64,000 nucleotides of DNA, from assembly GCA_002633005.1 (NCBI GenBank), contig NMRA01000486.1:266237-330236 (forward strand), read 5' to 3'. This stretch comes from Phoronis australis (lineage: Eukaryota; Animalia; Phoronida). A program made the translations under genes and the position numbers. This document shows positions 1 to 58,001 of the stretch, piece after piece (within the stretch, counting starts at the first letter, position 1; every line of letters starts with the position of its first letter). Below the pieces are notes generated by a model. The model was not told where the DNA came from. It saw only the letters and a list, made by a program, of their open reading frames with translations, and ran no database searches.

Positions 1-642
1 TAAAATGAAAAACTTCATAAGCTTTTCAAAAATATGTATACTTAATTTTCATTTTATTGCCTGAAGTTTTTTATGTAGTATGTAACGCCACGTTAAAGGC
101 CGGGGTTATTGTAATTGCATCTATCCTCGAAGCGAATTTTTTATTTAGGCCACGAAGCCTACATGTAGTTGATTCTCGTCTTTGCCTAGATTCATTTCGA
201 TCTGGGCTTACCGTCTAAAAACCGACAGACCCCCATCAATTTTAGTGGAAGTCTCGTTTTCTGTTTTTGTTTTTGTTTCATTGTTTTTTTTTTTGAAAAA
301 TCTGCTCAAAGGCACTTTAGCAAGGTTAGTAAGGTCTGAAACAGCATCGTTTGCCGGCGATGAATAAAAAATAACAATTGCCGGTCATTTTTTCTCGTCT
401 CTGTGGATTTTCGTTCTTGAAAAAGTAGGCGCCTAAAAATACCACACCACCTACCGGATTTTCGAAGAAAACCACAGACCAAACGGCTTTTTGCCTTACC
501 GCTCTAATATTGATCTCAACTTATTCCACTGTACTCAGACGAGAAGTGATTTCTAGGTTTGCAAAGAACAAGCCTCTTATAGGGCCTGGTCGCAAGAAAT
601 AACGAATTATCTGTTCTTTCGAACCTTGAAATCATCTCCACT

Positions 643-1090
643 TTTACCACCGTATTGCCGCGCCATTAGGCCAATGGGCGTCTGTGTACATCGAACTGCG
701 CATGCATGTGAGACAGGTGCATGCGCCAATTATGCGTACCACTTGTGTAAAAAAGGCCGCGAAAAAAGACATAATTTCGGATATAGGCCCATGGGCCAAA
801 AGGCGAGGCAATACGGTAATACAAAACTACCAATTGTCTTGAAAATACACCTAGAAACAAGATACAGAGGCAAAGGTAAAAAAATGCCATAAGGAAGCCC
901 AACGGTAGTCAAAACGGGTGCGCCTATATTCGAATTAATGTGTGGGCTTATGTAGGGGACATTGCCTAGGCTTATATGCAAAACTTAGGCGCATGCGCCA
1001 ATATGAGAACCAATTATGTAAAAACAGGCCACTAAAAAGGTGTTATTTCGGATATATGCCCATGGGCCTAAAGGCCCGGCAATAAGGTAA
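643..1090. mobile_element. MITE-like element with inverted and direct internal repeats
   Basis: ttaccaccgtattgccgcgccattaggccaatgggc (643) is the approximate reverse complement of gcccatgggccaaaaggcgaggcaatacggtaa (~790-820); a ~100-bp block at ~719-820 recurs at ~990-1090. Confidence 0.5.
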
Positions 1091-2109
1091 AATAATAAAT
1101 TGAGGCCAATTTCGTACTGTAAATGGTCTGAATCAAGTTATTTGTGATGGCAAGTGGGTTTATTGCCGCCTTAATATTTTGAATTATGAGTCACACCCAT
1201 ACATTCTTTCAATGTACTGCCTTTTCATACATCCAACAAACAACACCACAACTTTTTTTACAAAGCCCTGGAGATGTTTGATTCGCTTCAGTTTATTACT
1301 GGTACCATTCTCTCGTTTTACACACTTTTTAGAGGTTGAATTTGCAAAGTGCATAACTTAAGGAAATTAACCGTGAACTGTTTTCTTGAGACGGCAAACA
1401 GAGATGGACACCGTCTTTTGCAAAGTTGCTGGACCTTTTTGAGGCATAGTAATTAATGCCGCCGGCAGGTGCGCTACATTCGAGGAGCGAGATGAAAAAT
1501 TTTCCGTGCGATAATGAATCTCATCGTTGGTAGTGTAATCACTTTTAACGAGTTCAATCATAGGCCAAAACAGCAAATACACTCTGATCAGCGCAGAGTT
1601 GGTAACAGCAATAGTGAGCTCAACATGTATGAACTATACGTCGTGCGTTTATGGCGAACTAGCAAAGCACATTTTAATTTCTGCAATATGATGAAACTGA
1701 ACGGATGAAGGCTTACTAATTCGATGTTAATATTTTTAGATATTAGGAGGGTTTTCCAACAAGTTATTGCAATAATTTACGGTTTACAACACCCGTAGCT
1801 CACACTTTGCGATTTTATAAATGAGCCCCGTCACACCAAACCGTCCAAGCTGGAATGGACACAACCGTGGCAACGTCAGCGGAACTAGCAATTTATAGAA
1901 GCGTAACACTTGATTCGAATGCGACGCCGTCCACGGAGTTTTTTCTGCGATTGTATACGATGCTCGGTTGCTTGCCACTGGTTCGGTTTTCTCCCCTTTC
2001 CGACCGTCGGTACTGAATAATATGAACTGCCTCGGAGTGACAAGGCCAAAACCGACTAAAATGCCTGAGAACGAGGCACGCAGACGTGAATTTGCCTAAT
2101 TGTACTTAC

Positions 2110-2324
2110 GAAAAGATTGCCTCCGACACTGTCAATCTTTTTTGGGAGGTCTGGGCGCTTATTTAGCAAACCATCCCACGTTTCAATTACCCGCCCAGAG
2201 ATGGCGTCCACCACACATACTGGACGAGACGCTCTTCGGGCGCCTCCGTAGAAGTATTTCACGACAAATATTAGTTGACTTTTTCCTCTCCGTCTTTTTC
2301 TTAATTCATGTCTGTCTTCGACGC
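2110..2324 (-). CDS. M4 metalloprotease exon C (PepSY C-terminal part and start of mature domain)
   Basis: Acceptor gcattttcag|, reads (S)VEDRHELRKRRRGKSQLIFVVKYFYGGARRASRPVCVVDAISGRVIETWDGLLNKRPDLPKKIDSVGGNLF, donor |gtaagt. Resembles vibriolysin/LasB 'QLVYxVxFF...SRPxxxIDAxxGxVLxxWDG...GGN'. Confidence 0.85.
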
Positions 2325-2779
2325 CTGAAAATGCAGTATGCAGTGAAAAGCAACCTGAAGTAATTCATACGTTTGTTTTACGGAAAACAGATCCATTATT
2401 ATGTGAAGGGTTTGGAATCCAAGAGATCTTTCAGTAGATTCAAGTACTTAAATAGCAAGGACAACACAAAGCGTTGAGATAGGCCCATGACTAAACCGCA
2501 CACGCTAAGGTTGCATGCGAGCATCCAGACGGGGGGGGGGTCTCGGGGCTCGAACGTATACCCCATTTGGCGAAGTCGGCAAAAAGGTCCGCCTCGGAGA
2601 AAAAAAATTCAAAAAAGTAGAAAACGAGAGACAAAAGTACACTAAAAAGGCAGAAACTACCAAAATTCGGAGAATGCCCAATTCATAGCTCTGAACGTAC
2701 CCCATGAACCTTCAAAATAAAAGGTCCACATTCTCAAAAAATTCGAGCCCCCCATTTTTGGCTGGTTGTTCGCACAACT

Positions 2780-4100
2780 GTGGTGTAGACGGAATACGTC
2801 GAATCCGTCCGAAAATCATGATGTGAAGGCATCGTCCTATTCTTATCAGAAACCTATTTGCTTGAATTCATGAAAACTCGTCACAAATAATGAGACAAAA
2901 GTAAAAAAAATAGATTGCCACTGAGAGGCACAGAGGTAAATTGAATACTCCCAAAAAGCCACCTGTTGACGGCCCATGTACATAGAACTAAACTTCACAA
3001 AGTACAGAAATATCCTGCAAAATGTAAAAGATGGCCGCCTGGGGTTAATGCAAAACCCCACAAAATTGCCACTAGGGAGCGCTACAGCAGTTGGACCCGT
3101 TTGTAAGTCAACTATGTGACCTCAGCAGACCTGGAACACACGTGTAACTCGAACAGTTCGTCACATAGGTGGCACAGAATATGTCGAATCTGTCCAAAGA
3201 TGGAAATGAAGGCAAAGTCGTCACCTCAATAGAAACCTTTTTGCCAAATTTGATGGAGAACCATCAAGCAACTTCGAAGATATACAGGCTAACGTAAAAA
3301 TAAAATTGCCACGAGTGGGCACAACTCAGTGGCGGATTTGGGGGGGGGGGGCAAAGGGGCCATGGCCCCCCTAAAACTCTACCAGATACCATTTGGGAGT
3401 TTGCTTGTGAACTGCTGACTAGCACATGCGCGCAACCAGGGGGTGCCGAATAAACGATGCATGGGCCCTGAAGAAACCCGTTCACCGTTCTGCCGAAATT
3501 CTGGTTATTCCTGTGCCCTGCCCCCCCAACTCAAAATCCTGGATCCGCCCCTGCAGCTGTTATCTGATCGACCCAAAACACGATTGCCGTTCGTCATCAG
3601 CTTTGTAGGAACATATTCGCCAAGTTTCACAAAAAGATCCAGAATTTCAAAGGGCTAAAGAGATGCAGCTGCGGGAGCAACTTAAAAACCAAAATCGCCC
3701 AAAAATCAACGTCTGTCGTGGTCTCATCAGGAACACCAATTGTCATAACGATAATCCATTAAAGTTGATCGGTTTGGTGGGTAGAGATACAGACGCCAAA
3801 AACGGACCCGAAAATAAGAAAATAGCCATTGGGGGAGCAAATTCCGTCGAATACGTTCGAAATGGGGAAGTTGTCGTCATCTCAATAGAAATATGAATCT
3901 GCCAAATTTCGTGAAAGTCGGTCAAGGAACTGTGCCGGCAAACGTAGAATAAGTTAAAATTGCCAATTGGGGGTACACCAGCACTCGGATTTGTTAGAAA
4001 TTTGCCATCATCTGTCGCCAACTATAGGAACACGCCTGCAAAATTTCATGAAGATCCTGCAAGTCGGATTAGTAGACACATCAGTGCACGGACGCAAGAT
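2780..4100. repeat. Degenerate tandem array, probably the interior of a non-autonomous element
   Basis: A block like 'gtcgaatccgtccgaaa...gtcgtcatctcaatagaaa...gccaaatttcatgaa' recurs at about 2795, 3180 and 3845; a MITE interrupts it at 3327-3553. Confidence 0.45.
3327..3553. mobile_element. CAGTGGCGGAT/CAGGGGCGGAT MITE (hAT5-like)
   Basis: TIRs cagtggcggatt...ggatccgcccctg; flanks caact/cagct (5 bp, one mismatch); related to copies at 6921 and 34207. Confidence 0.75.
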
Positions 4101-4167
4101 GGCAAAACGCCGGATCAGAACAGATACTCTCTGGCAAAAAAGACAAAATTCACCATTGCTTAATTAC

Positions 4168-4308
4168 TTGTGTGTTGACGCTGGAATTGTCGAAACTGGA
4201 TAGTTAACGCCACGACCGAGTTTTCCACGCGTTTCAACATGACGTGACCGTTAGACTTCTTGCACTGGCGCAATGCCCATCGGCGCGTAATTCGTGGCCT
4301 TTCCCCTC
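4168..4308 (-). CDS. M4 metalloprotease propeptide exon B (PepSY N-terminal helix)
   Basis: Acceptor cttctttacag|, reads (G)GERPRITRRWALRQCKKSNGHVMLKRVENSVVALTIQFRQFQRQHT, donor A|gtaatt. 141 nt, phase 1 to 1, so it fits exactly between exons A and C. Not in the ORF track. Confidence 0.75.
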
Positions 4309-5188
4309 CTGTAAAGAAGGAGCACAACTTAATTGCACGCCCTTACAGGGAATGATTAAAAAAGCCTCATTGCTACCTAAAACGCAATGTAAAAACCAAA
4401 TCTCTTAACACCCGTATATGCCCCGAGTAATGCTGGTAACAATTTTTAACACCAAACGCAGGAATTCTGGACATTGACATTTAAAGTGGCTATCAAACAG
4501 GTTATTAACGTCAGTTTTTGGCCAGATGGCCATTAAAAACAAGACGCTGTGGTCCATATCGACGTTTTGTCATTACTCAATATCATCATCAGTCAGTTTA
4601 TAGACACAATAAATATATGCAAAGACGAGAAAAGTAATCCGTTCATTATTTAGCTCATCCCTTTGCAACTGTATCCATGATCATTCCAGCTGACGAAAAA
4701 TTCTGAGAACATGCAGGCCATATTTCTGTCTGAGCTCGTTTATAATGTTAACCAAACTTCACGAGCCCGTCGGGTCTGAAGCAACAAGAAATAGCGTTTT
4801 TCAAATCTATAAATCATCTTTTATCTTATCAAAGAACATGATGAAAGCGGTTTTACAAGAGTAAAGTGGTCTAAATCAAAAGTTGTTTTTCAGACGGTTG
4901 ATAGAAGAAGCGGGTTTATTGACCCTTTGAAAACGAGTGACAGAAAGTCACTAGTTTTAACAGTATTGGCCACTCTTTTCCAAAATTCAGTGATTCACAT
5001 CAAATGCACTTTCTTTTTATTTTAGAAACCAAATTCAATCACAAGAGAAAATTGCGACCAATGTCTCAACCATAAGAAAATGCCCCTAAAACTCCGTTGG
5101 GTTATCAATAGGCTTTCGATTAAACAGAAATGCCATCATATCCGAAATAGTTTCGCATAAGGCGTAATTTTTATGCAGGCTTTCATAC

Positions 5189-5318
5189 CACGAAGATCCC
5201 TCTCCACGTTCCTGATCAAGTGACCTCTCGCCCATCCCGTGTATTTATCATTTCGTTTTTCTGCGACCACCACCGTTCCATACAGCGGAATGCCCTTGTA
5301 GGTTTGTTGGTACTTAAC
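5189..5318 (-). CDS. M4 (thermolysin/vibriolysin-like) metalloprotease, FTP-propeptide exon (internal exon A)
   Basis: Minus strand: acceptor tcgtgcag|, reads VKYQQTYKGIPLYGTVVVAEKRNDKYTGWARGHLIRNVERDLR, donor G|gtatga (phase 0 to 1). Resembles the FTP motif 'RYQQxxxGxPV' of bacterial M4 propeptides. Partial model: join(5318-5189,4308-4168,2324-2110) = 162 codons with no stop. Confidence 0.85.
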
Positions 5319-6920
5319 CTGCACGATAAAGATTAAACAATTGCTAGCTAAACAAATATATATTATACATATTAAGTGATGTGTCTGTGTATGTAGGTGC
5401 GTGCGTGCGCGCGTGTGTGTGTGCCTGCGTGCGTGCATATGTGTATTGTATATAATATATTGTATATATATTATTTTGAAATTCATGCCCTTAAAAATCA
5501 GAAAAACTGTACTTTTTCAAAATTCCATTTCAGTGCTCAAGTTTTTCGCATTTCGGGGCATGTGCCTATGCGCTGACGCGACTGTCCCTTGTGTTTGCGC
5601 ATCATCTCATCTCTGATGTTTTCTGTTTCATGAGTTAAATTGGATGCATCTACAGTTTAATAACGACATAACAATGATTTTGTATTACTATAACTCAAAT
5701 CAGGATGTATAGGCACAGCTGCACGTGTAGGCAGGCGTAAGTATCCTGATATACGATTATATTCAACCATAAGTTACGCAGTCCTTGGTTTTCTCAGATA
5801 GCATGGTTTCGCCTGGCAATGCAGGCGCAACCATGTTCTTTCGATACAATCCGTCATTTTCCACACGACGTTATAATGTATCATAATTTATACAAGTTAC
5901 TGTACACGCTCATCCGATACAATTCGTTATTTTCCGTACATATGTGCAGTAATGTACATGAAAACGTCATTGGAAATGGACGAACTTAGACTCGAATGAG
6001 CTTCATTCATGTTACTGTATATAGTATGTACACGATAAAGTCACACGGAAATGGACGAACTTTGTACCGAACGATCACGGGCGCAACAGGATGCACTACA
6101 CAAACTCTGCCCTCCGTCGTCATTTCGCGCCGCTCCATGCAGAATACACCCAGTCTTCGGAAAAAAATATCACAAACAAATCTTTGACAGGGATGATCTT
6201 CGAAACAGATAACCGATGTCATCCTTCTCTGGTGCATTTCATACTCGGCAATTGTTTCAATACCCCGAGGCTCTTCGAGGTATGATCCTTCCATAGCCTC
6301 AGAATTTGTGTTCAGAGGTAGATTTGGAACCGGGCAAGAAGAGCCCAGGATTCATGGACAGCCAAATATTTTTCAACTTATTCTGAGCTACGCCCTAGAG
6401 CATCAACGTCGAAGCAACTGGTATTTCGTTCACACACCGTTCAATCAGAAGGTACTGAGACCTGACGTTTGTTCGGCGCCTGAAAAAAGTCGCACGTGAG
6501 ACGTTCGCTAGACGTCTGATTTGTGTATGTTATCTTCATGCTTCAAATCAAATGACAGCTCCACCTTCGTACCATGAGCAGCCTACATTTCGACGAAACA
6601 TTTTCTCCTTGTTCAGCCGTGGTGAGATGGCACGCGATTGGATTGAGTATTATTGCATACTGATGTTTTACTAATTGCTCGTAAGCGGAGAGTGATAAGA
6701 CGCCACTGGAACATTTTTGCAACCCGTTTTTAATCAATCTCCGGAAACGAAGCTTCGCTGACGCACGGTAGGGCATCACAGGACATATGCCCAAGACTAG
6801 AAACTTTTTTGAATCTTCTATGAAAATTTGCTCTCTCCCTCATAATCCCGTTTCGTCAACAACAAGTAAGGAGACTCGACAGCAATGGTCGTAAAGAGGT
6901 ATGTCGCCCTAGAGTCAGGA

Positions 6921-7070
6921 GCAAGGGTGGATCTAGGATTTTGAGTTGGGGGGCAGGACAGAGTATTAGCCTGGATTTTGCCCGTCAGACATTCGCGCCC
7001 CCCGAACTGCCAAATGAAATCTGGGAGTATTTTAGGGGGGGACCATGGCCCCCTCTAAATCCGCCATAGG
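6921..7070. mobile_element. Degenerate copy of the same MITE family
   Basis: caagggtggatctaggattttgagttggggg...ctaaatccgcca; interior similar to 34207-34363. Confidence 0.65.
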
Positions 7071-8249
7071 TGAACAGGTGTGTCGCTCTATAATCAGGAG
7101 TTGGCCGCGCCTTGAAATTTTAACCCCAGTTCCGCAACGATGGTCCTGGATCGACTCGCATTGAAGTTTGATTTTTTGGGTATGGAGTTAAGTCACCTGG
7201 CCGTATGAAGTATTTTCGGTGTGTGGAATTTAGGGGAACGGTTATGGATTTTGTATTGCGGATTTAGTATTCGTTGGTCCGATAGGTTTCCTAGGTTTGG
7301 GATATGACAGTCTACCTGGAATTTATAGCAACGACCATGCAATCGCTTTATCCCCTGATACGTCTTTCACTTATTATGCAGAGCATAGCGGGAAAATTCC
7401 ATTTTGAGGCCCGGAAAATGACTACGAAACTGGCCCGGATAGCATAAAAATTTGAAAGTTATCGGCTGCCAAAATATTCGATTTTTGCTTGACGTGATGC
7501 ACCTTGATGTTGACTAGTCGGTAAGCCGTCACACAGAGCACTATGGGTATTTTTGGAGTTCGCTGTCGGAATGGCGTATGTGGTAGACATTTATTATGTA
7601 TCCAAGCAAATTCTAGTTAGAGGTTGATTCGATAGTCCGAACGGCCGAGCCTGACTATGAAGTGAAATTCCCATAGCCGGCAAGAGTCTAAAGGTCTATA
7701 GTAAGAGATAGCATGAAAGACCGGCAGTCGGATTTAAGAGCCGATATTCCGAAAAGTGACGACCCTTCGGATGACACATTTATTTACCATTTTCACAACT
7801 TCGTGAGTTTCTTGATTGGCGACGCGTTGAACCTTGCTATATCCGACGTCAGAATGCTGAAAAGATATTTAACTCTAGTCTTGCAGAAAAGTCTGGAGTT
7901 CGGAAGCAGATACCTGAACTGTACCTGTCAACTTTGGTATGACAATTTCTGAGAAAGAAATTCTAAGCTTTTTAAAATAGCACCATTTCTCACGAAATTC
8001 ATTGACCGAAAAGTGCAAAGTTACTGGTTATGTGCGAATTTAGACCCATTATTGCGTATAGGCGCATATGCGACTAAGTTGCGAATATAGGCATAGCTTC
8101 AAATGTAGGCGCATGTGCCTATACGCGCACCAAATTTCTTGAGTAAAATCATGTTTGAAACTGATGCTCTGACGCACCCAATCATTTGAAAATACCCACT
8201 GCTATTTGGCGCGCGGGATGCAGTGAACGATGGGGTTCTTGCCAATAAT

Positions 8250-9192
8250 AGAGAGTTTCGGCTACGTTAAATGCGAACGCGACTTGGGAAGGATAATCAC
8301 ACTATTATAGCCAATACCAAAGTGACATTGAGGTGACAATCACTGGTCAGGAGTGCAGGTACACGGATTAGCAACAGTGTGATAGCTACCGTACAGACAA
8401 CTAACAAGAGTGGCAACTGGATATTAATATAAAGTTTTGTGGGTTGATCTCTTCGGTTTTCAAAACCAGTTATTTTCACGGAATAACGCCTGTTACACTA
8501 AAATCAAGTAATCATGAAGCTGACTGTTACCCGAGCAACTAGTTGGTGATGACCGCGTGCGTGAGACCGTGGTGGCAGCCGGGGGAGGGGGTAAAAGCTA
8601 CGACCGTGGTAACATCGTTATACTCTACCCCCGGTGAAAACAATTAGCACCGAAGTTACAAAAATTCTAAGCTTTCAACTTTTCTGATACCAATAGTGAT
8701 TTTGGGCAAAAATGCGCTGGCAGAGAAAAAAAATGTCTTTCAAAAACTCTCAGTTATTACTGTTTGCTTTGAGTATCAAATTAACATTCTCCTCATTTGA
8801 TGAAATATTGCCAACATTGAGATGTTTTGGCTCAAAATAAGATCGAGTTTACTATTAGTTTTCTGTGTCGTCACTTATTAGCCTACCACCTGATTACTGT
8901 GACTTTTCTTGGAAAATCAACACAGCGAGGAACGTACTAAGCTTCACTATCTCATGATAGCTGAACTTTCTAAAAACATTAAAAAGTTGCATATATCTAA
9001 CGATTTTCTACGATAAATCGGCAATTAAAACACACGTTTTGCATTTGCGTGAGATCAGAGGTCTTCGCGTTGTTTCTACCCGTGTGACAAGACTGGAGGC
9101 GAAACTGTAGTTCAACGTTGTGACGTAGTAAGCAAAGAATGCTGATCTCACATGTTCGCGTTCGCGTTTAGCGTCAGTGTTGCCGAACTCTC
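8250..9192. mobile_element. Non-autonomous DNA transposon relic with imperfect TIRs
   Basis: Left end agagagtttcggctacgttaaatgcgaacgcgac matches the reverse complement of the right end, ggagagttcggcaac...cgctaaacgcgaacgcgaac. Confidence 0.5.
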
Positions 9193-9351
9193 CTTAATCT
9201 CGTTCAGTACGCCTATTGTTGTTTATGGCAATTGCTTTTTGTCATGTTAACAAACGCGTTTTCACCTTTTGCACGCTGATGGCGTGCAGTTATGCATTAA
9301 AGAAGGAATGCCTACTTTCCATCAGCTGATCGGTGCGCTCTAGGCAATATT

Positions 9352-10284
9352 AATGACCATCGCCTCTGTTGCCCCGACCAGAGGCGATGCAGCTCCTATA
9401 GGCGCTCCATACGCCTGAAGCTTTTCGGCGAATTATACCTCGCAACAACTAAAACATCAAAGTCACGTTGTTATAAATACTTTTTGCGCATAGAGGAACA
9501 CCTTAGGAGGTTGTCAATGTGTTTAATTCCTTCGAACAAATACTCCCGTTATCAAACTTTTTCTTCGAGCAGTCCCTATTTCAGTTCCCAAAATCGTGAA
9601 CTCAACATTTTTGCACTGCGCACGCCAAGAGATATGACCTCATTCTTTTAACCAGGCCGAAGGTCAGAAGTTGCGGCCCTACCGGCGAACTTTGAAAGCT
9701 GAAGTCCCCGCCCTCTGCGTACGTGCTGCCGGGAACCAGCCGTGCATTTGCCGTGTAAACATTAAAATGTCAAATATGTGCACAAAGACTATTAAATGTC
9801 ATGTCAACAGCATTTATTTTTATCAAATACAAACAATAATTCATTGGAATACAATCAGTTTCAAGTAACGCCAATTAAAGACAAGTAGTGGTGGCATTTT
9901 GGAAACGAACATTTGACTGACAAGACCGCAATGGCTCACCTTTGGCCTATTTAAAGATTGAGGTCATGAAGTCACATCCCCTAGCGAGCACGGTAAAAAT
10001 TGGAGCGTCCGCAGTATAAAAATGGTGAGTTCACGATTTTGGGAACTAAACGAGTGACTGCTCGAACAAAAAGTTCGATAACGGAAGTATTTGTTCGAGT
10101 TGGAAGGAATTAAACACACCGACAACCTCCTAAGGTGTCCCTCTATGCGCAAAAGGTATTTATAACAACGTGACTTTGATGTTTTAGTCGGTGCGAGGCA
10201 TAATTCGCCGAAAAGATTCCGGCGTATGGAGCGCCTATAGGAGCTGCATCGCCTCTGGTCGGGCCAACAGAGGCGATGGTCATT
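9352..10284. mobile_element. Foldback/MITE with ~300-bp inverted arms
   Basis: 9352-~9665 is an imperfect reverse complement of ~9935-10284 (aatgaccatcgcctctgttg... / ...caacagaggcgatggtcatt). Confidence 0.85.
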
Positions 10285-13200
10285 GCCTAGGTGCCCTCGG
10301 GCGGACAGGTATCAAATTAAAGCGGATGTTGGTTCAAATTAAAATGGAAAACCAAAAAAATTAAAAGACAAAAAGATTGGCTCGCATTGCTTGGAGCTAG
10401 ATTTCAGATAAAGTGAGACAATGTCACTAAATAAGTTATGCCCATTTTTGAAACCGGATTTCCGGATTCAACGGCGGATTGCGTTTTGTCTACCACAGAT
10501 TAAAATCGTAATGCATTCACTTATCTTAATTAGTATTGAAATTTGATCGTTTTGTTATACTTTTTCGGTTCTAAGTCCCCAAGTGATAGTAAAAACCTAT
10601 AGGGATTTGTACTGGCATCCCTGTCCTCAGTTTTGGTCGGCGACGCGGCTGATCACCTCCCCCCCCCCCCCCCCNTGGTGTGGAGCCTCTTCCGAACACC
10701 ATAAATTTTCCCAGTGTCCTTTGTGCAACCCCCAACCTCCAGAAGTTGCCCAGCATCATGATAAGCCGGATATACTCACAATTTCCGTCCCGCCTGCTCG
10801 CCTGCGTGATGTAATAGGTCGCAACGCCTCCCATCGGTTCAAATCAAACCTCTTAACGAAGTCTGTCTCGCTGTACCCGAAATCATGACGTGTGAGCGTC
10901 CTATGCCATTTGATTCTCTCTTGTTTGCAATGGCCAACAATGCACCAGAACGCCAAAAGTACTTGAAATAAAAATTAACCATCCAATGCATATATGTAAC
11001 GGAATGTCCCCAATTTAGGACACATCATGGCCCACAAGTGAAAAATTATTTTACCATATGCAGTACCAAATTAAATGCTCTTCCGTGTTCAAGTTTTGTA
11101 CCTCAGATATCACCGGATAAAATTTTGAAAAAATATGAAGATTCAAGGTAACGTTAGAAGCTCTTGTTTTGTACGAAATTGGTCTAATTTTACCGTAATA
11201 ACATGGAATAAAGTATATATTACGTGTACGTTTACTGACACTTGTGAGTCGAATTACGACCATGGAAATATGCAGCACAGGCTCAACCAGGGAACATTTG
11301 ACGTACGTTAAAATAACATCATATTTGGTTTTTTGAGGACCCAGTTCGGAGCAAAGCCAAGCAAGCGCTCATGCGGCCAGTAATTTCCCAGAGTCAATTG
11401 GCTTTTTGTCTTTCAAGAAACAGACCATGTACAAGCACACGCAAACCCCCTATTTGACCAATGAATTCGATCTTACTGATAACGTCGTGGTTGAAATGCC
11501 ACGATAAACATTAGGTGGTTATATAGTATATATGAGACCTCGTCGACAATTGTGTATAGTTAGCCAAATGTCAACAAAACTATAGATTTTAACTATTAAG
11601 TAAAAACATATAGAAAGCATATAGAATTTGATGTTCGACTTTTTATTGGTGTGCCATTACCTGGGTAAAGTGACCATGTCTTTTTGGTAAAATGTAGCAA
11701 AAAAAACGTAAGGTATATGGCCAAATTTCAGTTGATATAAATGTTCCGCATGAAATCTCAAAAAACGCTATTACATAATTCTTAATTATCATTTCGTTTT
11801 CGTTGTATACGAATTTGAAGCTTTTTCATAAAGACCATAAAAGTCCTGTATTTGACAGACCGTTGTGAACATTTTAAAACCAATTGCTGACAACTCTGTT
11901 GAGAACAGTGCATAAAACATAGCATATGAAAGTTTTACACGAATTCGATCAGTTATTTCTGAGATATTATGTTCTGAAGTTAGCTAAAACTGGACATACT
12001 TGGGCCTTGCTGTACATAACATTAGGACTAATTTCTTACTTAGACTTATCATCAGTCGTGTTTCAACCACACTTGATCAAAAGCACTTAAACTATCTGGA
12101 TAGTTAGTGATGACGTATCTGCAACTAACTTGAATATGACGCGATTTGGACCCACAAAATAGAAATGCACAGTAAGTCACATTTTCAAAAATTTGGAATG
12201 TCTTGGTCTTTTCCAGATTCCGGAAACCACGGGACAATATAGCACTTGAAATTTTACAATAAAATTGTGTTTTGATTAATCGGTGCGCAGCGACCACGGT
12301 GTATGCTCCCGAGGAGTTCAGGAGGATTAGAATTGACCGGGTCAATGCCCAGTTATTAATTTTCGAAGTGCTTACTCAGTAAATCTGGTCTAGTTATTAT
12401 TAATGTTTTTAATTGTAGCATCTTAGTTTTATTTGAGTGGGTCCAAAGCGTCAAAATGGTGTCATGACACTACTATCACTTCTATCGGATTCGACACAAT
12501 TTTTTAATCTGGTATGTCACGTGTTTGTAATTGTTCTAGTGAAAAGCATAGACACCCATATCTCATTGTTTTTATATCTATGGCGACAAGTCCCAGTGTA
12601 TCATAAACTACTGCAGCAGATTATAATGACTACCAAATGCGCATATCAATTCATTTCTAGTAAAGAATATTAAAATTATTTAGGTCGCACAGATATCTGA
12701 CACATTACAGTGTCAGCTTGAATTTATCACCCTGGCGATAACTACCTCGGGCATACACTGGTTGCGAAACAGCAAAATTTTCTGAACCATATACACTGGA
12801 TTCTATAGATGCTTTTATTCACATTATAAAGAAAACATGCTAATGTTAAACCAACGTCTCCCTGATGTTATGTATGGTTTCTACGTTTATTTACGCCTAT
12901 CTACAAACCGTGCGTTTGCTAACTTGGCAATGTAAAATTTATCCTCAGGACAAACTGGGAGAACTTGACAAGTTCGAGCAACTTGAAGTTGCGCGATCTT
13001 GTGAAGTTGACAAACACACACTGTCGTTTTGCGAAATCGTAACACGTCCGCCGCTATCAGCTTCAAATAAATGTTTTCTAGCCTAGACTTAAACCTGCAT
13101 GGGACGCGAAAGCTCGTCAAAAATATCTTTTGAACAATTCCTGATGAAAGTACCAATTGGCAACGTCTAGTACAGAGTAATTCATTTTCTCCTGTGAGGA

Positions 13201-15620
13201 AATTTCCAGAAAAATCACAAATTCACAACCTTTGAATTTAGCGCGAAGGAAAAACTTTGTGGTTACCACAGAATTTCTAATCTCCCTCCCGTTTGTGATA
13301 AATGCGAGCATGCGCACACAGTAAGTTGCTTGAAGTCGCTTGAGGTCAAAGGTCACATTTCCATATAAGGCAATTGTCTATGTCTTGCCGTACCAAATAA
13401 GGAGAGGTGCTTTGCTTCGTGGGAGAAAAATAGACCAAGAGGCGATCAGTTGACAAATGTTTTTTTTGAAATTTGAAACTAAAAGAAAATTCTTTGATAT
13501 GAACAGAAATGAAAAATCTTTACCAACAAACTCTAGAAATACCTGGTGAACAGGTTGAATTCTGTTTCAGTGGCAGAGAACCACTTTCAATGTTGCAATT
13601 TAGTCTGTTTATCGCGTTCCAGGCTTCTTGTGTGATAAACATCTAACGGGAGGTTTTAACGATCATGAGAAATTTGTCATTGTGTATAGTTCCTGTCCTG
13701 ACACGCAAAGAATACTGTATTTCGCAACATGCATTCTACTCTTTTTATTAATTTCATATTGTGGACGTCACGTAACCTTCCCATTGTTATTTTGTGCAAT
13801 ATGGATTGGGTCCATCTAAATAAAACGATTTCAGGAAAGCGTAGTGGAAGAAAAGTAGGAAAAGATTGTTCTTATACTTTTGATTAAATATTTTCTTTTT
13901 AACCTTCATTTTCTTAAAGATACAAATCGCGTCACTGTAATTCAGTGAAACTCGCAAAGACTTACCGACGGTTCCGGTGAAAACTTTGCTTGCGTTCATG
14001 TCAACTGAAATACAGACATACTTATACTGGCAGGTGGCAACTTATGTTGAAAAAGACCTAGTCTGGGTTATTCTACTTCAGCATTCGCAAAGAAATAGGC
14101 CGGACGCGTTATCATGGGCGATCATTCGCTACAATTCGTCATTTTCCGTAAGACATTATAATGTACATAATATGTAGTAGTATACACGATAACGTCACAC
14201 TGAGATGGACGAACCAACTGTTATCGCGGGCTCCTCACTTCTTGCACATTTTGGTGGCGCTGCAAAAATGATTGTTGTGCATTGTTACTGACGGTTTAGG
14301 ATACAGTGCCTCGTTTTATATATTATAACAACGCAGACGTGAAATCGCACGTGTTACAAACATGTAAAACCATTGACACGACATCTCGTTTTCAAGCATA
14401 ATGACAAAGTCGTGCAAGTATAGTGACGTAAGACGTAATGCGACCTGTGTAATTTGACTCTAATACAACATGGCCGCGAATATTACTACGAGATAAAATA
14501 TTGATCGTGTACGAAAAGATTTGGCATGTCCTGTTTCATGGAAATTTTGTGTAGTATTTTTCGTAAAATTTCCTTACGGTAAATTACTTTGTCTTCATAA
14601 AAAGTACGCAGACCTAGGTGGAATTGAAAATCTTGTTTTCCTAATACATTTCATGAAAGAATTTGTTTCAAGTTTTCAGATCAATTTTCCACAGCTGATC
14701 ATTCACATATCAAGTTGTCTGCAGCCTGGATGGAATTTGAAAATTGCGAATAATGGATTCCATACTAACCAATTCTACAAAAGTTTTTGTCATAAATTAT
14801 CATTCTTTTGGAGGGAATTATATGGGTAAACACAGGACGGATGTTTGTAAGCGATGCCCATAATTACGTCGTGTACGCACTGTAAACGATGAGCTTGATT
14901 TTTTACTTCTGGCAAAATAATGATTAACTTTTTCAGCCATGAGTTTAAGGTAAAAAAAATGTGCGATGCACCGCTTTCTTTATCCTGTTTTATTCAATCA
15001 CAACTGGCGTTAACATCTTTAGCCTGGTAGTGTATGTTCATAAACATTTTACTAAAGTTTGTTAGTGTGAACACACAATTTTAGTGCCACCACAGTCGCA
15101 GATCTGCGAATTGATTTGTCTGCCTCATGCGAATAACAATTAAAGCTGGGAATTGAATGAAAAGGCGACAAATTCGTTCAACTGATGTCGTATTTTCACG
15201 CCGTCAGATATTGCTCAGTTGAGACAGACAGTTCGTTTCCATAGCCCTCCGTCTGCGGTGGCCCTTAGAACAATGTGGATGCATCACTGTTCTTAAATAA
15301 ATTGAAGAAAAATGTGACGCTCATCCAGAAGGTGTCCAAGTCGTCAGAACCGCCCGTATTCAACCATTTTTGTATTGCTGCAATAAAGACTGCCTTGATC
15401 ATGATCTTAGATCCGCCCTGAAAACTCAATGAGCATCTCAGAATACAGGGCGAAGCAGTGACGTAACAAAACACTGACCTAAAGTGCTTCTTTGGTTCAT
15501 TGATTATGGCTGTCGCATTCAAAAACGTTTCACTCTTGTTTTGCGATTTCACCCTGAAGTGGTTCTGTCAGCTTTTACAGTGAATGATTTGCTTGATAGG
15601 TGAGCCATAACCCTTTTCAT

Positions 15621-15930
15621 CAGTGGCGGATCTAGGATACCATAAGGGGGGGCCAATATGTTGCCTCGGGGTATTGGGCAAAGCACGAATGCATGTGTAC
15701 GTTGCGGGGGCTTGGGATGTGGACCGTGGACCTTCTGTTCAGAAAATCTATCGGTGGAAAACATAAAAACGGGACACGATTCCGTCGCAGTCTGAGGTCT
15801 GCTACCGGTTCTAGTTACTACACTCAATATTTCTTCACGCTTCACGCTGTTGCTGTTTCATTTTGCTCATGCGGCAGCTAGGGGTTGGGGGCGGGAGGGG
15901 GGCTGCCCCCTCCCCCTAAATCCGCCTATG
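15621..15930. mobile_element. hAT5-like MITE with 5-bp TSD TTCAT
   Basis: cagtggcggatctagg...ctaaatccgcctatg flanked by ttcat on both sides; inverted relative of 20853-21191. Confidence 0.8.
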
Positions 15931-17085
15931 TTCATAGATAGAAAACGCTTCAGTACCGGTACTCAGTGTGTCACAAACTAGACAGAACCTGTTGTTGGAG
16001 GTGGGACGTCGATTAAGCAGTCCAAAACATTAGTCACGCTTGGCGATGTAGAGATTTCAAACGTTTTTCTAAATTGTCGAGGTTGGCGACGGTATTTAAA
16101 TGATAAGTAATCAAGCACTAATTGATATCTGTTGATAGGCTAATAAAGTTCAGTATAAGCTTCTAGCTTGATGCCATATTTTTGTTCACATCGGTAATTC
16201 AGACCCCATCAACATTTGCCTTCGATGAAATAACTGAAATTATGAATCTTCCACTGTATTTCGAGATACAGAAAGATGTACTCACTGAACATCTGTCCCA
16301 GCGTGATTTGATTCTAAACACTTCTCAAGTACTTATCATTTGTGTTGACACACCCACGTGACGGTAATGTTTGTTTCATGAGATTTATGACTGACGTAAC
16401 GTCACCTATAGTTTGACGATTTTTCAGTGTCTTGAGCGAAATGTGGCCTGTTATTCCTCTCGGATGAACATCGGCTAATGAACATTTTAGCTTCTTTTAA
16501 TTCCAAATGTTTTATTGGAAATGGTAAACTCAAACTGTTCTGGGCTGTCACAGGCAGAAAGCAATCAACGAAATTCAAACTGCTCCAAGGAATATGAGTG
16601 AGACACAGGCCTACGTAGTTTGCTACGGGGTTCGGCCAAAATTGCCTATGAATATTTACTCTGAGGATAGGCCAGCTATAGTAATAAAGAGAACTATTGT
16701 GTCCTACGATGAAATTTAATACATCTGGGACCTGTTTCTTGAAGAGTTTGTAGCCGAATGTTGATATTTTTTCAGTTATCTTTTGACTTAGTTTTTGTCT
16801 GCTCCCAAGCCTCGAATGTAGTGTGAGGCTTTTGGGTTCGATTTCAGATTTTCTGGCTATACAGTCTCAGGGCGGATTTCGTGACTGTGATGGTCGGTGA
16901 ATTGTGCCGCACACCGGGTTGATGAATTTTAGATGTGGACAACTCTTGTCATTTCCACTAATTATTCTGCCCACTGTTGGACCTGATCGCAAGGCTGAAC
17001 GTATTTCATCGCGCCTATCGGTGGCTTGGTAAACTACAAGCAGCCACTTCCGTTAGTGAGACGAGTGTACGAGTTTCCCATCACA

Positions 17086-27195: not shown

Positions 27196-29435
27196 CTCAA
27201 GTGGAAGAGACGCTCTCCTAGAGTAAAAACACAAAAACGCATTTTACAATTACCAAAAAATAGTGTTGGTGTTTTCATACTGGTCTCTAGTGTAATAGGA
27301 CTAGAGATTACTCAAAGACTTTCGAAGACCTAATTGAGTCTTATATTTGCTCGAAAACATCTGTCCGAATCAGGTCGACTTATTGAGTCTGGTTAGTTAC
27401 AACGAATTGTCAATTCTTCTCAAGCCATAAAACCACTTCTTTCGAGAATAAGGTACAAGTTACTCTTAAGAGGTAAGCACACTGCACACGACTATATTTT
27501 TATGAACGAGGGTGCAACTGAAAAGTTGCGCCCAATTCAGTAGAGAGTGGACTGGAAAAGGGAACCCCATTTATTAATAGCTTCTATGAACAATAAACGA
27601 TCCTTTTAAGGGTTTTGTTACACAAACACTACCCTTTTGTTGCGACTAATCCTAAATCTCTTTGAAGAGACTCTTAAGACAGCTGTTTTAACCCATGAAG
27701 TCTGAAACAGTGCTAAAGGAGGTGTCAGTAGTAGATGCCAAAGTTTCATGAAATTGAAAACACTACTTTTGATTTTTAGTTTGAAGAAAGAGCCTTTTGA
27801 CCTGAGGAGTTGAGGCCTTTTGTAGGATATTAATTAAATCTGCAAAGGGGGTCCTTTTGTAAGATACTATCGGAAAACGCGCCATGTGATGCGTCAAGCA
27901 ATGCCACCATCCGGCCATTCCTGCTTTTTCCAGGTTCCTTATATTTCTCTGCGTTGTCTGCTGTCAGGTATCTATTGACAGTACTCACGAAATGTCGGAT
28001 TTTGTGTACGGTCATTGAGCGACATGAAATGAGAAAACTACAAAATTCGCATCCATGTTTTAAAGCAGGCCTTCTATTTACTTTAGCAGAGTATTGTCAG
28101 ATGTTCTTTTGGTATAAATGATAAATTGGCATATCGGACGGTGAGAGAATCTTCCTGAAACAAGTCCAAATTATTGCCCGTCTTGACGAATAGTTGACAA
28201 CCTCAGCATCGCCGTTGCCGGCATACTCGAAAAGCCACCAAGCAATTTTATCTGAGAAGCCAAACGTATGAGTGACGTAACCATAGATTCATGAGAAATG
28301 TTAAGACAAACTAGTGTGACCCTATCCGTACTCGAGCAGTGAACTAGTTCAACTCCCAGAAGCGAGAACACTACCAATTAAACCGAGCTAATTCTTATTT
28401 TCTTTAATGTCTTATATATGTAGGAAGAGATGACCGTACAACACATGATTCGTGCACGACATTTTTCTCAGTCAACAGTAACTTTTCCAGGTCTACCAGC
28501 CTCCCGTTCAGTAGCAATAGGACCTCGCTAAAAAGCACATGCAAATTGACATCAACATTTTTTTAGTTAGATTGGTGATTATTCAAGCAAAATATAAGCA
28601 ACAATTAGAAACGACACTACCCTTTTATTGTTGGCGATAACAGTGGCACCTGGCAATAACTTCGATGGGACTGAAGTAGCGACTGCACCGTAGCGTCGAC
28701 GCTCCGGTGTTAAATCCACCTCTTTATTGCAAAGTTAACTACAGAAGTTAACCGTTCATACTGACCACAACTCCCCAAAACACCGACGCGTCGACGTTAG
28801 TGAGAAAGGCCCGTAAGAATGACCCGTTGACCACAGCCATAGCCAACTCGTCACCAGTTTTCGAAAAAATATTCTGCCGCCTCCAGAGTTCAACTTAACG
28901 CAATTGTTGAAGTTGCATATCGTCGTGAGAACGAATGTTTTCAACAGGAGACAAATGATAACACTGCGGGTATCCTCACGCTCAGCTGTAAGTCGCATGT
29001 AAAAGATTACAGTGTGAATTCCGTTTTTCGTGACAAATTGCCGAAGGATATAATTATATTCGCAAACAATACCGTGCTCGCCGATAGTTCAGAAACAATC
29101 CGTTTTTGAAGTTGGCGCACGTCTAAACAAATTTTTAAACCTCAACCTCCTCGTTTCCAAAAAGTAGGCCTAATCTGCATCCACAGCTGACTAGACGTTT
29201 CTCACAATATCGTTAAGACTGAACATAGGAACCCCTTTAAATCCTTTTAAAATAGCCACTCGCTGCTCATTATGGGAGGCCCGGTGAAAATATTGAACCG
29301 TGAATGAGATGATTTTAAAATCTTTGAGGACCATGATGTATTTGTACTTTGCTAAACATGTGTTGTGAATATTGCACTGTGTCCTTGTAAAAAAAATACA
29401 ACTAATAATGATAATGATGATAATAACGATAACGA

Positions 29436-29920
29436 GTAATAGTAGCGATAGTAATACTAATAGTAATAGTAGTGATAGTAGTACTAATAGTAATAGTAGC
29501 GATAGTAATACTAATAGTAATAGTAGCGATAGTAATACTAATAGTAATAGTAGCGATAGTAATACTAATAGTAATAGTAGCGATAGTAATACTAATAGTA
29601 ATAGTAGCGATAGTAATACTAATAGTAATAGTAGCGATAGTAATACTAATAGTAATAGTAGCGATAGTAATACTANGATTTTAAAATCTTTGAGGACCAT
29701 GATGTATTTGTACTTTGCTAAACATGTGTTGTGAATATTGCACTGTGTCCTTGTAAAAAAATACAACTAATAATGATAATGATGATAATAACGATAACGA
29801 GTAATAGTAGCGATAGTAATACTAATAGTAATAGTAGCGATAGTAATACTAATAGTAATAGTAGCGATAGTAATACTAATAGTAATAGTAGTAATAGTAG
29901 TTACAGTAGTAATAGTTATG
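29436..29920 (+). repeat. 27-bp minisatellite (aatagtagcgatagtaatactaatagt), duplicated across a contig join
   Basis: Tandem units. Sequence from ~29311 restarts exactly after the N at 29676, which indicates an assembly overlap. Confidence 0.9.
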
Positions 29921-31793
29921 TAATAGTAATAAAAGTGATAATGGGTAGCCAAAATCGTGCTGTGTCAATTTCTATAGAATAGGTATACGAAAAGTGCCGC
30001 CCAAAAGGGTGTTTTTTTCACGGAAAAAAGTACTCTCCAAAATGATGCCATTTTCGACAAAATACTATCTAAAGGGGTGCCTTTTCTGAATTTCTGGAAC
30101 AGAGCTGCGCGAAAATGTGAATTTTTACACAGAATTACTCTCAAAATGGGTCATTTTTGTTCAAATCCACTCTCTTAATGGGTAGGTATCCAAATTTTTC
30201 GGGCTGCACCCATCGTCCAAAAGTACTCGAGTATCCCTCGGCCAGCGTGTCAGATACCTCTTGTTCGTGATTTTGGTCATTTTCTTTGTAATATGACGTT
30301 GGTTTCGAAAAATGTAACAATGGTACATTTCTCACATGCGCATTCGACGTAAAATGTAACAATGACGTAAAATGTAACAGTGGTTACGTAACGAATAACG
30401 AAATTGTTACATTTAACGGCGTATCAAAGCACATTTCCCGGCACATTGTCATACAGCATGCGTACGGGAGTACTTATTACCGGGTCCTGTTCAAATATTT
30501 TGATTCATAAATGCGTTTATCACCAAACAAAACGCGTTGACGTCGTAATAAGTTACATAAAGTTCGATCCTTGTCTGGGAGTGGCTAGACCTATTATTCA
30601 ACTCCCTGGGCATGCGTTTGTTAAGAATGGGGAAGTGGGTCAAAGTGTGCACGACGTCCACCTGCCTGCCGTCTGTTAATGAGACGGCAGCCAATATTTT
30701 TCTGCCCCAAGATTGCACAGCCACTGAACTATAAATGGGCGGAGAGGGGCTGCAAAAGGAGTCCCACACCCGGTTTCTAGGGACACGACCAAAAAATAAA
30801 ACAATGAAATCATTTTTGTCAGTATTGCTTATGATGCCGTTTGCAGGGCTTACGTCGGTGGTCGGTAAAAATGTGTTTGCACCTCCCCACTCCCGCCCCC
30901 TTATGCCATGCTAGATCCGCCAGGGAAGTGGCTGGAACATGTAAAAGCAAAGATATGGAGAGTAATTGAGAGGCGTGTAACCCCGGAATGTCAGTGATCC
31001 TCCACGGTGTGAAGACGGTCTTCAGTTCAAATAGAGCGTAAAAAAGTGTACGAAGACGCGAGGCCAGGCTCTAAATCAGTCGACTCGGACCTGGAACTTA
31101 CTAATCACGATGGATGATTTGAGTACAAGTATCAAGTTCTTAATTTACTCGTAGCCGGCAACCGACGTGCCTTGCAAAGTCGGTGAATTTTCAGGGCAAG
31201 CTAGGACCTAGACTGGGCCAAGGTATCATACTCTGATAAATTTTGACGGTCAAAAATACTCCTGGGCAAGTACATGATGTTGCGATTAGAGCGTCAACTT
31301 GTTCGAGACAACCACCAAAATCAGTCGCCTTTCTCATGTCTGGGATGCCTTAGCGGCTTCTGTGCAGATCGACAAAGATGCAGTTTACATTTACTTATTT
31401 GTTTTACCTCAGTTAATAGAGCATGCAGTTGACGTGAATCACGCAGTACAAATCGGTTCATTCGTAGCTCATGGCCACTCTAAGAGGTGATCAACAAAAG
31501 CTTGACCGAGCAAACAATGAGGGCTTTTAGGTGGCTTGCTTTATTGTGTGCTAAAGCGTCGCCCGAATGAACTAACTTCACCGAGAGAGACCAGGATGCG
31601 ACGTAGGCTACATGTAATATTTGAGCAGTCGGGTTCACTACTATTGAACACTGGAGAAACTTCTGCTCAAACTTCGTAAAGGTTTTCACATCCAGCTAGG
31701 CCAACACCTTCTGAGGATCACTGTTTGATTAGCAAAGGCTTTCAGAAACTAAATGTCTTATTTCTGTCCGACAGACTCAGGACAGGCGGCGAC

Positions 31794-34788: not shown

Positions 34789-34946
34789 GTAAGCGATGTT
34801 ACTCAACTGCAGGGCATAAGGTGCACGACCAGATACTGGTCAATAAAACGTAACTTGAACAAAATTTAATACTAGAATGTTTAAGTTTATATTGAATACA
34901 GATGATTCATTGGTTCATACACACTATGTCGTTTCTTTGGTTCCAG

Positions 34947-35184
34947 TTTCATCCCCTGCAAGACCAGTTCACCTTTGAGCTGGAGGCGAAGGATGAGGTA
35001 CAGTGCAAAGGTTGTTGTGACTGGATGCAAGTTGTGGATTCCCAGAGACAAGACCAGCCTCTCACGCAGAAACTTTGTGGTTCTCAGACTACCTTCGACT
35101 TGAAGAGTTTGTCAAATGAAGTTCGTGTGTCATTTTATAGCGACAATTCCCTTCCAAAACAAGGATTCAGTCTCCCGTTTGAAG
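34947..35184 (+). CDS. CUB domain 1, C-terminal exon
   Basis: gttccag|, FHPLQDQFTFELE...CCDWMQVVD...KLCGS...SLSNEVRVSFYSDNSLPKQGFSLPFE, G|gtaatt. Confidence 0.92.
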
Positions 35185-35468
35185 GTAATTCGTTGGATAA
35201 GAACTTTTTGATACAGACTATAGACTGCATTACAATGTTACACAATAGATACCAAAATTATTAATTCACCTACAAGTCAAAACATAGGAGACCATGTAAA
35301 TATTTTGCTTACAAGTAGGTTCACAATCATAACTTTAATATTTTGTCGTACTAATTACTGTTTTAACATTTAATATAAAACATGAAACATGATTATTAGT
35401 ATCATTATGGTTTTGGACTATTACTACTGCTATTACTGTTGTTGTTTTTGTTGTTACTATTGTTATTG

Positions 35469-35625: not shown

Positions 35626-35809
35626 TACCATCATGATTATTATTATTGTGGTGTGAGGTTATTGCTTAGGTATTTCCCTATTTTTTTCAATAATCTAACT
35701 AAAACACTTGTCGAATTATTCTTCAAAATTTAATTCGCTGTTTTACACTGAGTAATTTCCTCAACGGTTTGAAGACTTTTGACCAAACGATAAGGGCGTG
35801 TCGTTTCAG

Positions 35810-36187
35810 TTGTCCTGGAGCCGTTGTACACTATATGTCAAGACTCTACCACCGCAGCATTGCGCGGTACCATTGTGTCTCCTGGATGGCCCTCTTCATC
35901 ATATCCCACGAACAAGGATTGTAAGATATCAGTAACAGTTCCCGAGGGGCACAATATTCAACTTACTAGTCAACTCCTGGAGATAGAGACAGACTCCGAC
36001 TGTAGTACGACGACTTGCTGTAGCACTGATTGGTTGGAATTTCGTGACATCAACAGGAATGTCCTGGTGAAAAAATTTTGTAGCGGAGACCCCAGTGCTG
36101 AGTTGCTGTCGAACACCGCTGTCATTGAGTTTCATTCCGACGGTTATAACAAGGGAAACTTCAGGGGATTCCAGTTTGTATACGAAG
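35810..36187 (+). CDS. CUB domain 2 exon
   Basis: gtttcag|, ...CQD...GTIVSPGWPSSSYPTNKDCKISVTVPEG...DWLEFRD...KFCSG...VIEFHSDGYNKGNFRGFQFVYE, G|gtgatt. Confidence 0.93.
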
Positions 36188-36657
36188 GTGATTTTAAAGC
36201 GTTCCACGCTCTCGAACATTTCGATTGGTAACACTCTATCTGTGAATGAAAACAAACAGAATGAAATTAAGTTTTGGAAATGTACATTGAAACTACGCAA
36301 AAAAGTCACTCACGACTAATTATCGTCGTCGTAGTGACAATATCCTTTTCGTTGAGAAATTAATTTAACGTTTTCAGTGACCAAAAGAAATGGACATACC
36401 GGTACTATTTTTAAAGTGAGATTATTCGAGCATATCCATTCCCAACTAGTGTGACTACTATGCTGGGATGAGTAGGCTCTGGCCAGTCTTACTGTTTATT
36501 TTACTTTTCTTCAAGAAATAATCCAATTCTGAAACAAGTTTTAAAACTACTAATTTCCAGCCTTTGCACTCGTTCGGTTGAGCGAGGAGGGTGTCTTCGA
36601 AAGCGCGCACAGTCTCTCTTTTAAATCATGCTTGACTTGCACCTTTTCTGTTTTCAG

Positions 36658-38261: not shown

Positions 38262-38400
38262 AACCTGACTCAAGGGTCCAGCAGTGTGGCCCAGTGGGAC
38301 TCGAACTAGAGACCTGACTCAAGGGTCCAGCAGTGTGGCCCAGTGGGACTCGAACCCACGAGCACATGAAGCCGACACTTATTCCACTTGGCCACACTGA
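38262..38400 (-). mobile_element. tRNA-derived SINE head with internal tandem duplication (second copy at 45526-45650)
   Basis: Minus strand gtggccaagtgg (A box)...ggttcgagtcccactgggccacac (B box). Confidence 0.55.
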
Positions 38401-38741
38401 CTATAGATCACGTGATGTAACCAACATATGGCGTGTATGAAGACTAATAATTACTTATACGATGTTCAACGCGCTTGTTTATAACAACACAATTATATAG
38501 AATTTTTTATTGTTTTGTTCTCCCTAACTCCAATGTTTAAACGTTATGGCGAAATTCCGGCAAAATGTGGTTTAGGTGGCACATGTTTTTGAATTTCCCC
38601 AACGACGTCTTCTTAGGCGGCTGTGTCGTCACCATTGAAACCATTGTCGTAGCCGTGGACGTCATAATTATTTTAATCACTTACGTTCTAACTGACGAAA
38701 TGAATTAAGAAATAAAAGGTCCCCTGTTTATTTCCTTCCAG

Positions 38742-39609: not shown

Positions 39610-39934
39610 GCCTGTGACTCCACCACTAGGATTATTTATGGCATTTTATTTTAGTTAAATTAAAAAGATACACTATACTCTTTGTTTTAATTTCTTTCTG
39701 GTTATCAAACTCATCACTCGAGTTTCTTCAATAGAAATATAACAGTGCATTTGATAGATCCAACTCCACGCCTATTTGCGTTACATTAAATTGTTGGTTT
39801 CTATTTTCGAAAGTCACTGAATGCGATGTTCAGTTGTGTCATGTTGGTAAATTAGGATGTACCACACAACATTTAACTGTCAAATTAAATTTAAAATGTT
39901 TATGAAATTCCGTTGAGTTTGAAAAAAGAAAATT

Positions 39935-41838: not shown

Positions 41839-41839
41839 N

Positions 41840-46304: not shown

Positions 46305-46305
46305 N

Positions 46306-46811: not shown

Positions 46812-46887
46812 NTACATATGCACAAATTTTGGGCAACTTAAAATGGATCTATTCTTACTAATTACTTAATCAATATTTATTCTGACA

Positions 46888-57991: not shown

Positions 57992-58001
57992 TTGTTTTCA
58001 G

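Follow-up and report, generated by a model that had tools for sequence, protein, structure and literature searches.

The left end of a 64,000-nucleotide stretch of the genome of the phoronid Phoronis australis (contig NMRA01000486.1, positions 266,237 to 330,236; hereafter the window, in whose coordinates all positions are given) carries on its minus strand a spliced gene whose visible exons are predicted to encode the propeptide of an M4 metalloprotease of the vibriolysin/LasB type. A first-pass annotation of the sequence had drawn three of these exons, and our recomputation reproduced their coordinates, strand and phases exactly, the 486 nt of spliced sequence reading as 162 codons with 0 stops. 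In the order of transcription, the structure is as follows.

11236..11263, minus strand: candidate first coding exon (uncertain), ATG at 11263, 9 codons plus 1 base, donor GTAAAC
10780..10961, minus strand: further upstream exon, 182 nt, phase 1-0, AG/GT ends, in phase with exon 5318-5189
5319..10779, minus strand: intron between exons 10961-10780 and 5318-5189, 5461 nt, phase 0, GT...AG
5189..5318, minus strand: exon, propeptide with FTP motif, 130 nt, phase 0-1
4309..5188, minus strand: intron between FTP exon and middle exon, 880 nt, phase 1
4168..4308, minus strand: exon, middle of propeptide, 141 nt, phase 1-1, AG/GT, open frame
2325..4167, minus strand: intron between middle exon and PepSY-like exon, 1843 nt, phase 1, GT...AG
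2110..2324, minus strand: exon, PepSY-like propeptide end, linker and the GGN opening the mature vibriolysin-type domain, 215 nt, phase 1-0 (RKRR at 2301-2290 and GGN at 2124-2116, both within this exon)
1..2109, minus strand: beginning only of the next intron (>2.1 kb), donor GTAAGT

Gene structure and transcription

Each of the three exons first drawn is preceded by a pyrimidine tract and an AG, and their donors are GTATGA, GTAATT and GTAAGT. Exon 10961-10780, overlooked in the first reading, encodes the last part of a hydrophobic, signal-like stretch followed by ~50 residues of propeptide N-terminus and raises the score against a bacteria-only propeptide profile by 6.2 bits; by itself it gave no significant match to P0017, one of the two nearest relatives discussed below (E 0.31). 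Together, the four exons comprise 222 codons without stop or frameshift, and their splice sites are all canonical. An unspliced in-frame ATG upstream of 10961 is ruled out by stop codons. Exon 11263-11236 is the nearest of 13 open ATG-to-phase-1-donor candidates (donor score at least 6 of 9) in the 9 kb upstream, and the N-terminus that includes it is hydrophobic, with an 11-residue mean hydropathy of up to 2.8. The visible N-terminal exons probably encode a signal peptide.

The first-pass annotation had also placed host miniature inverted-repeat transposable elements in the introns. This holds for intron 2325-4167, which contains high-copy repeats including a ~200-nt element with imperfect 23-nt inverted ends (3335-3532), and on which partial RNA reads heap up at ~2560-2760 and ~3340-3560; it does not hold for intron 4309-5188, where no inverted repeat is present. 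High-copy repeats occur in two of the three introns examined. Intron 5319-10779 harbors a fold-back element (9352-10284) with inverted arms of 186 and 94 nt (~280 nt) that are 88-94% complementary, and this element is high-copy as judged by partial RNA reads.

Transcription was assessed by aligning four RNA runs carrying the same species label to positions 1-16000, three as raw reads (X1-X3, ~18-19% of each used) and one as contigs (X4). In X1, the bins of the four exons were almost purely of one orientation, as expected for minus-strand RNA in most stranded libraries, with an implied depth of 3.0-7.6: ~7.6 on exon 10961-10780 (bin depth 2.59 vs 0 by strand), 5.3 on exon 5318-5189 and 3.3-3.7 on exon 4308-4168. 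The bin of the candidate first exon (11215-11748) showed a one-strand excess of 1.8 vs 1.03 that is confounded by a repeat, and among the joints listed no junction read for this exon was seen. Splicing across intron 4309-5188 was borne out by three X1 reads that connect 4306 to 5191 with exactly 4 letters between, the count demanded by the splice model; reads across the other three junctions were absent among the joints listed. At two of the four junction letters the reads depart from the genome; both are synonymous third-position differences, due perhaps to an allele or to misreading in a G/C run. In X2 and X3 there were only traces, and the X4 contigs listed were only repeat-type pieces. The four exons are thus transcribed and one intron is spliced, at a low level and mainly in one of the three raw-read samples. 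Within intron 5319-10779, positions 7477-8010 showed a one-strand X1 depth of 0.49, about two reads, from either pre-mRNA or an unmodelled exon.

Match to M4 propeptides and closest relatives

M4 proteases are familiar as bacterial enzymes and virulence factors. They are made as secreted precursors: an FTP-PepSY propeptide serves to fold the zinc domain and to keep it inhibited, and the enzyme frees itself by a cut just upstream of GGN. The three-exon peptide is colinear with residues 72-197 of a Salinivibrio M4 protease, with a Smith-Waterman score of 127 (z 19.8); in 500 shuffles the score averaged 31.9 and never exceeded 51. A Vibrio aquimaris M4 gave a z of 14.6 and a Bacillus M4 a z of 6.9. 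When 2792 segments of the window were scanned in six frames with the bacteria-only propeptide profile, just two fell at E<5, and these contain exons 5318-5189 (E 1e-10) and 2324-2110 (E 8e-6). The FTP motif proposed for exon 5318-5189 was recovered by Pfam (PF07504, 26.8 bits vs a cut-off of 21, E 4.5e-6); this exon also matches thermolysin and Mcp02 and found 13 matches in a plasmid collection, 8 annotated as M4 metallopeptidase and 5 unannotated.

The PepSY assignment (PF03413) of exon 2324-2110 fared less evenly: Pfam gave no match, whereas the sequence itself matches pro-elastase LasB (E 0.003) and MCP-02. The Pfam miss says little, because among 13 equivalent pieces of bacterial M4 proteases the PepSY model recognises 6 and misses 7, one true Vibrio M4 falling below the cut-off. 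The exon is 41% identical to P0015, the other of the two nearest relatives (E 4e-10), and matches the bacteria-only profile at E 1.4e-9. Exon 4308-4168 is weakly conserved alone (E 0.019) and contributes 6.6 bits when added to the profile query. An AlphaFold model of the PepSY-like piece, built from an alignment of 14, is a small strand-rich beta-sheet (mean pLDDT 70) for which the top Foldseek rows were MCP-02 structures 3nqz/3nqy (rmsd 1.6 over 42 columns), at an E of 0.11 that is below significance; a wide structure search with the 65-residue model gave Z<=3.6 only, among unrelated beta-sheets, and was uninformative. NCBIfam matched none of the four exons.

As to subgroup, the spliced peptide scored 71 bits on a bacteria-only vibriolysin/LasB-type profile (28 GGN-type propeptides, excluding the window peptide and P0015/P0017) vs 33 bits on a thermolysin-type profile (8 rows, thermolysin-type and Bacteroidota), the two profiles being unequal in depth; the 33-bit match is confined to the FTP part. 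Both marks of the vibriolysin/LasB subgroup, GGN and the propeptide end SRP...DA..G....W.GL, are present. The order of FTP, PepSY-like region and GGN described in the first-pass annotation is thus the vibriolysin/LasB arrangement, in agreement with the profile scores and with the clade placement given below. Judged by sequence, the spliced exons encode an M4 propeptide of the vibriolysin/LasB type, and a chance match is refuted.

Compared with the vibriolysin/pseudolysin group (LasB 8cr3/8cr7, MCP-02 3nqy/3nqz and the Vibrio and Salinivibrio M4 proteases), the window peptide is colinear over ~190 residues and shares the signal (predicted in the window), FTP, the PepSY-like region SRP...DA..G....W.GL and GGN. 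It differs in having at least four spliceosomal introns and only 20-28% identity, in a basic insertion of ~18 residues, containing RKRR, that lies within the PepSY-like region and is absent from the bacterial relatives, and in a linker that is longer than the short bacterial one and reads SVGGN where the bacterial proteins read GPGGN. The RKRR is furin-type, and an R-x-K/R-R motif occurs in one of the 38 other tree rows. Over its last 170 residues, the window propeptide carries a net charge of +23, the highest of 31 GGN-type rows (the others range from -25 to +15, the bacterial-type rows from -7 to +15). Thermolysin/bacillolysin-type and Bacteroidota M4 proteases have FTP in common with the window, whereas they lack the GGN-type linker and fall on a separate side of the tree. 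The fungalysin family M36 is the other FTP-bearing family; no M36 protein appeared among the matches, those of the C-terminal exon being all M4, and no dedicated M36 profile was run on the spliced peptide.

Single-exon searches returned 0 of 92 candidates at E<=1 and 0 of 1 at E<=10, a phmmer search with a single exon against 1.84 billion representatives gave 0 at E<=0.001, exon 2324-2110 found 0 of 286 stretches of genome contigs, and P0015 matched 0 of 7 viral contigs; the single-exon blanks are weak, because the queries were just 43-71 residues long. A profile of a Vibrio propeptide together with two window exons gave 15 matches, 9 named bacterial, 2 named only "vibriolysin" and 4 unnamed. 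In genome searches, P0015 was matched in 18 of 400 genomes of the Vibrio class and Peptidase_M4_C in 46 of 201 genomes of the Crocinitomix phylum. Among the 57 distinct M4 sequences from profile matches and genome searches that were compared, the four-exon peptide is closest to P0017/P0015 (30.5%, E 6e-17), and gammaproteobacterial rows come next at 20-28% identity.

A tree of the propeptide only (39 rows, 186 columns) was rooted on 8 non-GGN rows and contained no named eukaryote; the GGN-bearing loci L019 and L020 were omitted because their motif could not be placed. The window peptide falls inside the 31-row GGN-type clade with a support of 98/95. A grouping of the window peptide with P0015/P0017 was not rejected (p-AU 0.54); this falls short of showing a clade, and the grouping is open to long-branch attraction. 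In the free tree, P0015 and P0017 are not sister to the window peptide and are both long branches. These two proteins, on contigs of 1.4 and 2.0 Mb in ENA, have in common with the window RASRP and (S/A)VGGNL, an insertion in the corresponding loop and a longer linker, which in these two proteins contains an RxxR; in contrast, each reads as one uninterrupted open reading frame (ORF; 342 and 379 aa) extending into the catalytic domain, and their propeptides are strongly acidic (-25 and -23, vs +23 in the window). They are possibly intron-poor eukaryotic copies or pseudogenes.

Two further observations concern the bacterial sequences. Vibriolysin-type paralogues are multiple in two gammaproteobacterial genomes, G212 with four (L025, L034, L038, L039) and G324 with three (L017, L033, L037). 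In two proteobacterial metagenome-assembled genomes, a stand-alone 204-aa ORF (L005 1254-1868, L007 1242-1856) that by eye resembles an FTP/PepSY propeptide lies directly upstream of a large M4 gene.

Predicted catalytic half and host setting

The first-pass annotation reported that no catalytic exons are visible, and neither tblastn nor a catalytic-domain profile (best E 0.26) gave a significant match in the window. No next exon could be accepted within 1-2109, as the 59 candidate acceptors there gained at most 2.9 bits vs at least 14 bits for 12-residue positive controls. The intron after 2110 must be longer than 2.1 kb because no acceptor in 1-2109 scored, a length in line with the other introns of the gene (0.9, 1.8 and 5.5 kb). 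The strong donor that follows the last visible exon, beyond GGN, is what a gene with its mature domain still to come would show, and the full-length proteins closest to the propeptide all carry Peptidase_M4. The gene thus likely continues beyond the left end of the window into a predicted zinc-protease domain.

The window has a GC content of 40% vs 49% in the exons, and the flanks of the gene are eukaryotic, with CUB-domain exons, LINE reverse transcriptase and retrotransposon gag. Together with the intron repeats, this is in keeping with an invertebrate animal. The CUB-domain exons belong to a separate gene for a secreted or membrane protein, on the strand opposite to the M4 gene.

34896-35261, plus strand: CUB-domain exon (E 8e-10)
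35794-36228, plus strand: CUB-domain exon (E 3e-14)

Positions 38268-48668 consist of nested, ~95%-identical duplications with LINE reverse transcriptase and gag fragments and with single Ns at the joins (39071-41191 vs 41840-43967, 44412-45525 vs 47550-48668 and 38268-39055 vs 45525-46304), which represent either elements copied recently or an uncollapsed haplotype. Units of ~30-45 nt are tandemly arrayed at 29311-29931, 53115-54227, 57688-57992 and 62439-62844.

Origin and proposed function

We consider it reasonably probable that the locus is a transcribed, spliced nuclear gene in which a predicted signal and a vibriolysin/LasB-type M4 propeptide continue into a zinc protease, and that it stems from an old transfer from a marine proteobacterium. 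Long residence in a eukaryotic genome is suggested by the presence of at least four introns and by identity of ~30% to every relative found. The nesting among proteobacterial vibriolysin-type rows, the several introns and the deep divergence likely reflect an old bacterial transfer; they fit one without proving it, since the tree has no named eukaryotes and rests on the fast-evolving propeptide only. A precedent for a secreted hydrolase acquired from a proteobacterium is bilaterian alpha-amylase (PMC7003070); it is likewise a bacterial-type secreted hydrolase with introns in a eukaryote, and a different enzyme.

Several observations weigh against this reading. The first coding exon, 11263-11236, which would supply the start of the signal peptide, is a guess, and just one of the four modelled junctions is present among the joints listed, on three reads, repeats having hidden many others. 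Neither HExxH nor ExxxD (Peptidase_M4, Peptidase_M4_C) occurs within the 64-kb window, and neither the single-exon searches nor the 15 profile matches produced a homologue named as animal or otherwise eukaryotic. The window peptide sits on a long branch (1.81) that is compositionally odd and has no resolved sister inside the GGN-type clade, and the nearest relatives P0015/P0017 both stop prematurely or shift frame near HExxH. Lastly, bacterial vibriolysin-type proteins cleave themselves at a His-Ala site, and the window linker lacks the His that precedes it in many bacterial rows, with Leu and Ile near the equivalent position; the His is not strictly defining, because several bacterial rows lack it too.

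That the same secreted protease entered eukaryotes far earlier, or from another eukaryote, and survived patchily after many losses is the alternative we take most seriously, although we judge it unlikely. It would account for an identity of ~30% or less to all relatives, and the ambiguity between patchy retention and transfer is known for animal enzymes (PMC7003070, PMC4729200); yet the tree puts the window peptide amid proteobacterial vibriolysin-type rows and not outside the bacterial M4 proteases as a whole. The product might instead be a propeptide only, or catalytically dead, and either inhibit bacterial M4 proteases after secretion or act as a cationic defence protein. We regard this as improbable: the exceptional positive charge among the GGN-type rows, the missing linker His and the lack of a catalytic exon within 2.1 kb would suit such a protein, whereas the last exon extends beyond the cleavage linker to GGN and closes with an open donor, and a gap of >2.1 kb is unremarkable beside introns of 0.9-5.5 kb.

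Decay into a transcribed M4 pseudogene appears marginally less probable still. The long branch, odd composition and low expression are what it would predict, and P0015/P0017 look disrupted, but 222 codons over four exons remain free of stops and frameshifts, the splice sites are canonical and the two mismatched letters in the junction reads leave the protein unchanged. A bacterial contaminant or a chance match, which has in its favor just that the family is mostly bacterial, carries practically no probability and is already refuted by the spliceosomal introns with host repeats, the junction reads, the eukaryotic flanks and the z of 19.8. The locus is a real host gene and not contamination, as the first-pass annotation had maintained.

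If the locus is, as we favor, an intact protease gene of bacterial descent, its product can be pictured by analogy with the family, from which catalytic competence and an extracellular protease role are proposed. The predicted signal would route the precursor into the endoplasmic reticulum (ER), where the propeptide would chaperone folding and block the active site. The propeptide would be removed by a cut in the linker immediately upstream of GGN, which the enzyme would make itself on the N-terminal side of a hydrophobic residue and/or with the aid of a host convertase acting at RKRR, in the loop that the bacterial relatives lack. The mature HExxH enzyme would then be secreted and could digest extracellular protein (food, mucus or matrix). 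A bolder proposal, which we put forward as speculation with little expectation that it holds in full, is that the gene represents an undescribed animal clade of Vibrio-type M4 proteases derived from a marine gammaproteobacterium and refitted to eukaryotic secretion, in which the inserted convertase site would govern activation and the freed, strongly cationic propeptide would also act in defence by blocking the M4 proteases of Vibrio-like pathogens.

Automated M4-like gene models exist in several marine invertebrates. Literature searches found no study of animal M4 proteases, supplements, where gene-transfer tables may list M4s, being outside their scope; for example, the main texts of an amphioxus transfer paper (PMC13350694) and a hemichordate genome paper (PMC4729200) contained no protease terms in the parts consulted. 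In a whelk egg-fluid study, transcripts named "virulence metalloprotease (vibriolysin)" and "neutral protease" are tabulated as bacterial (PMC10913743, Table 2); in our own interpretation alone, these transcripts may be host genes.

The window gene is real and expressed and adds a eukaryotic member to the M4 vibriolysin group, one that probably goes back to an old transfer and would be completed by a catalytic domain. A spliced and expressed animal vibriolysin-type gene opens three questions to testing: the date and number of this enzyme's entries into eukaryotes, the way in which a self-activating bacterial zymogen was fitted to the ER/Golgi route, and its possible use by invertebrates in digestion, mucus or defence. 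The gene is also a reason for caution in host-microbiome work: if the bolder proposal holds, invertebrate RNA studies could be counting transcripts of such genes as those of microbes.

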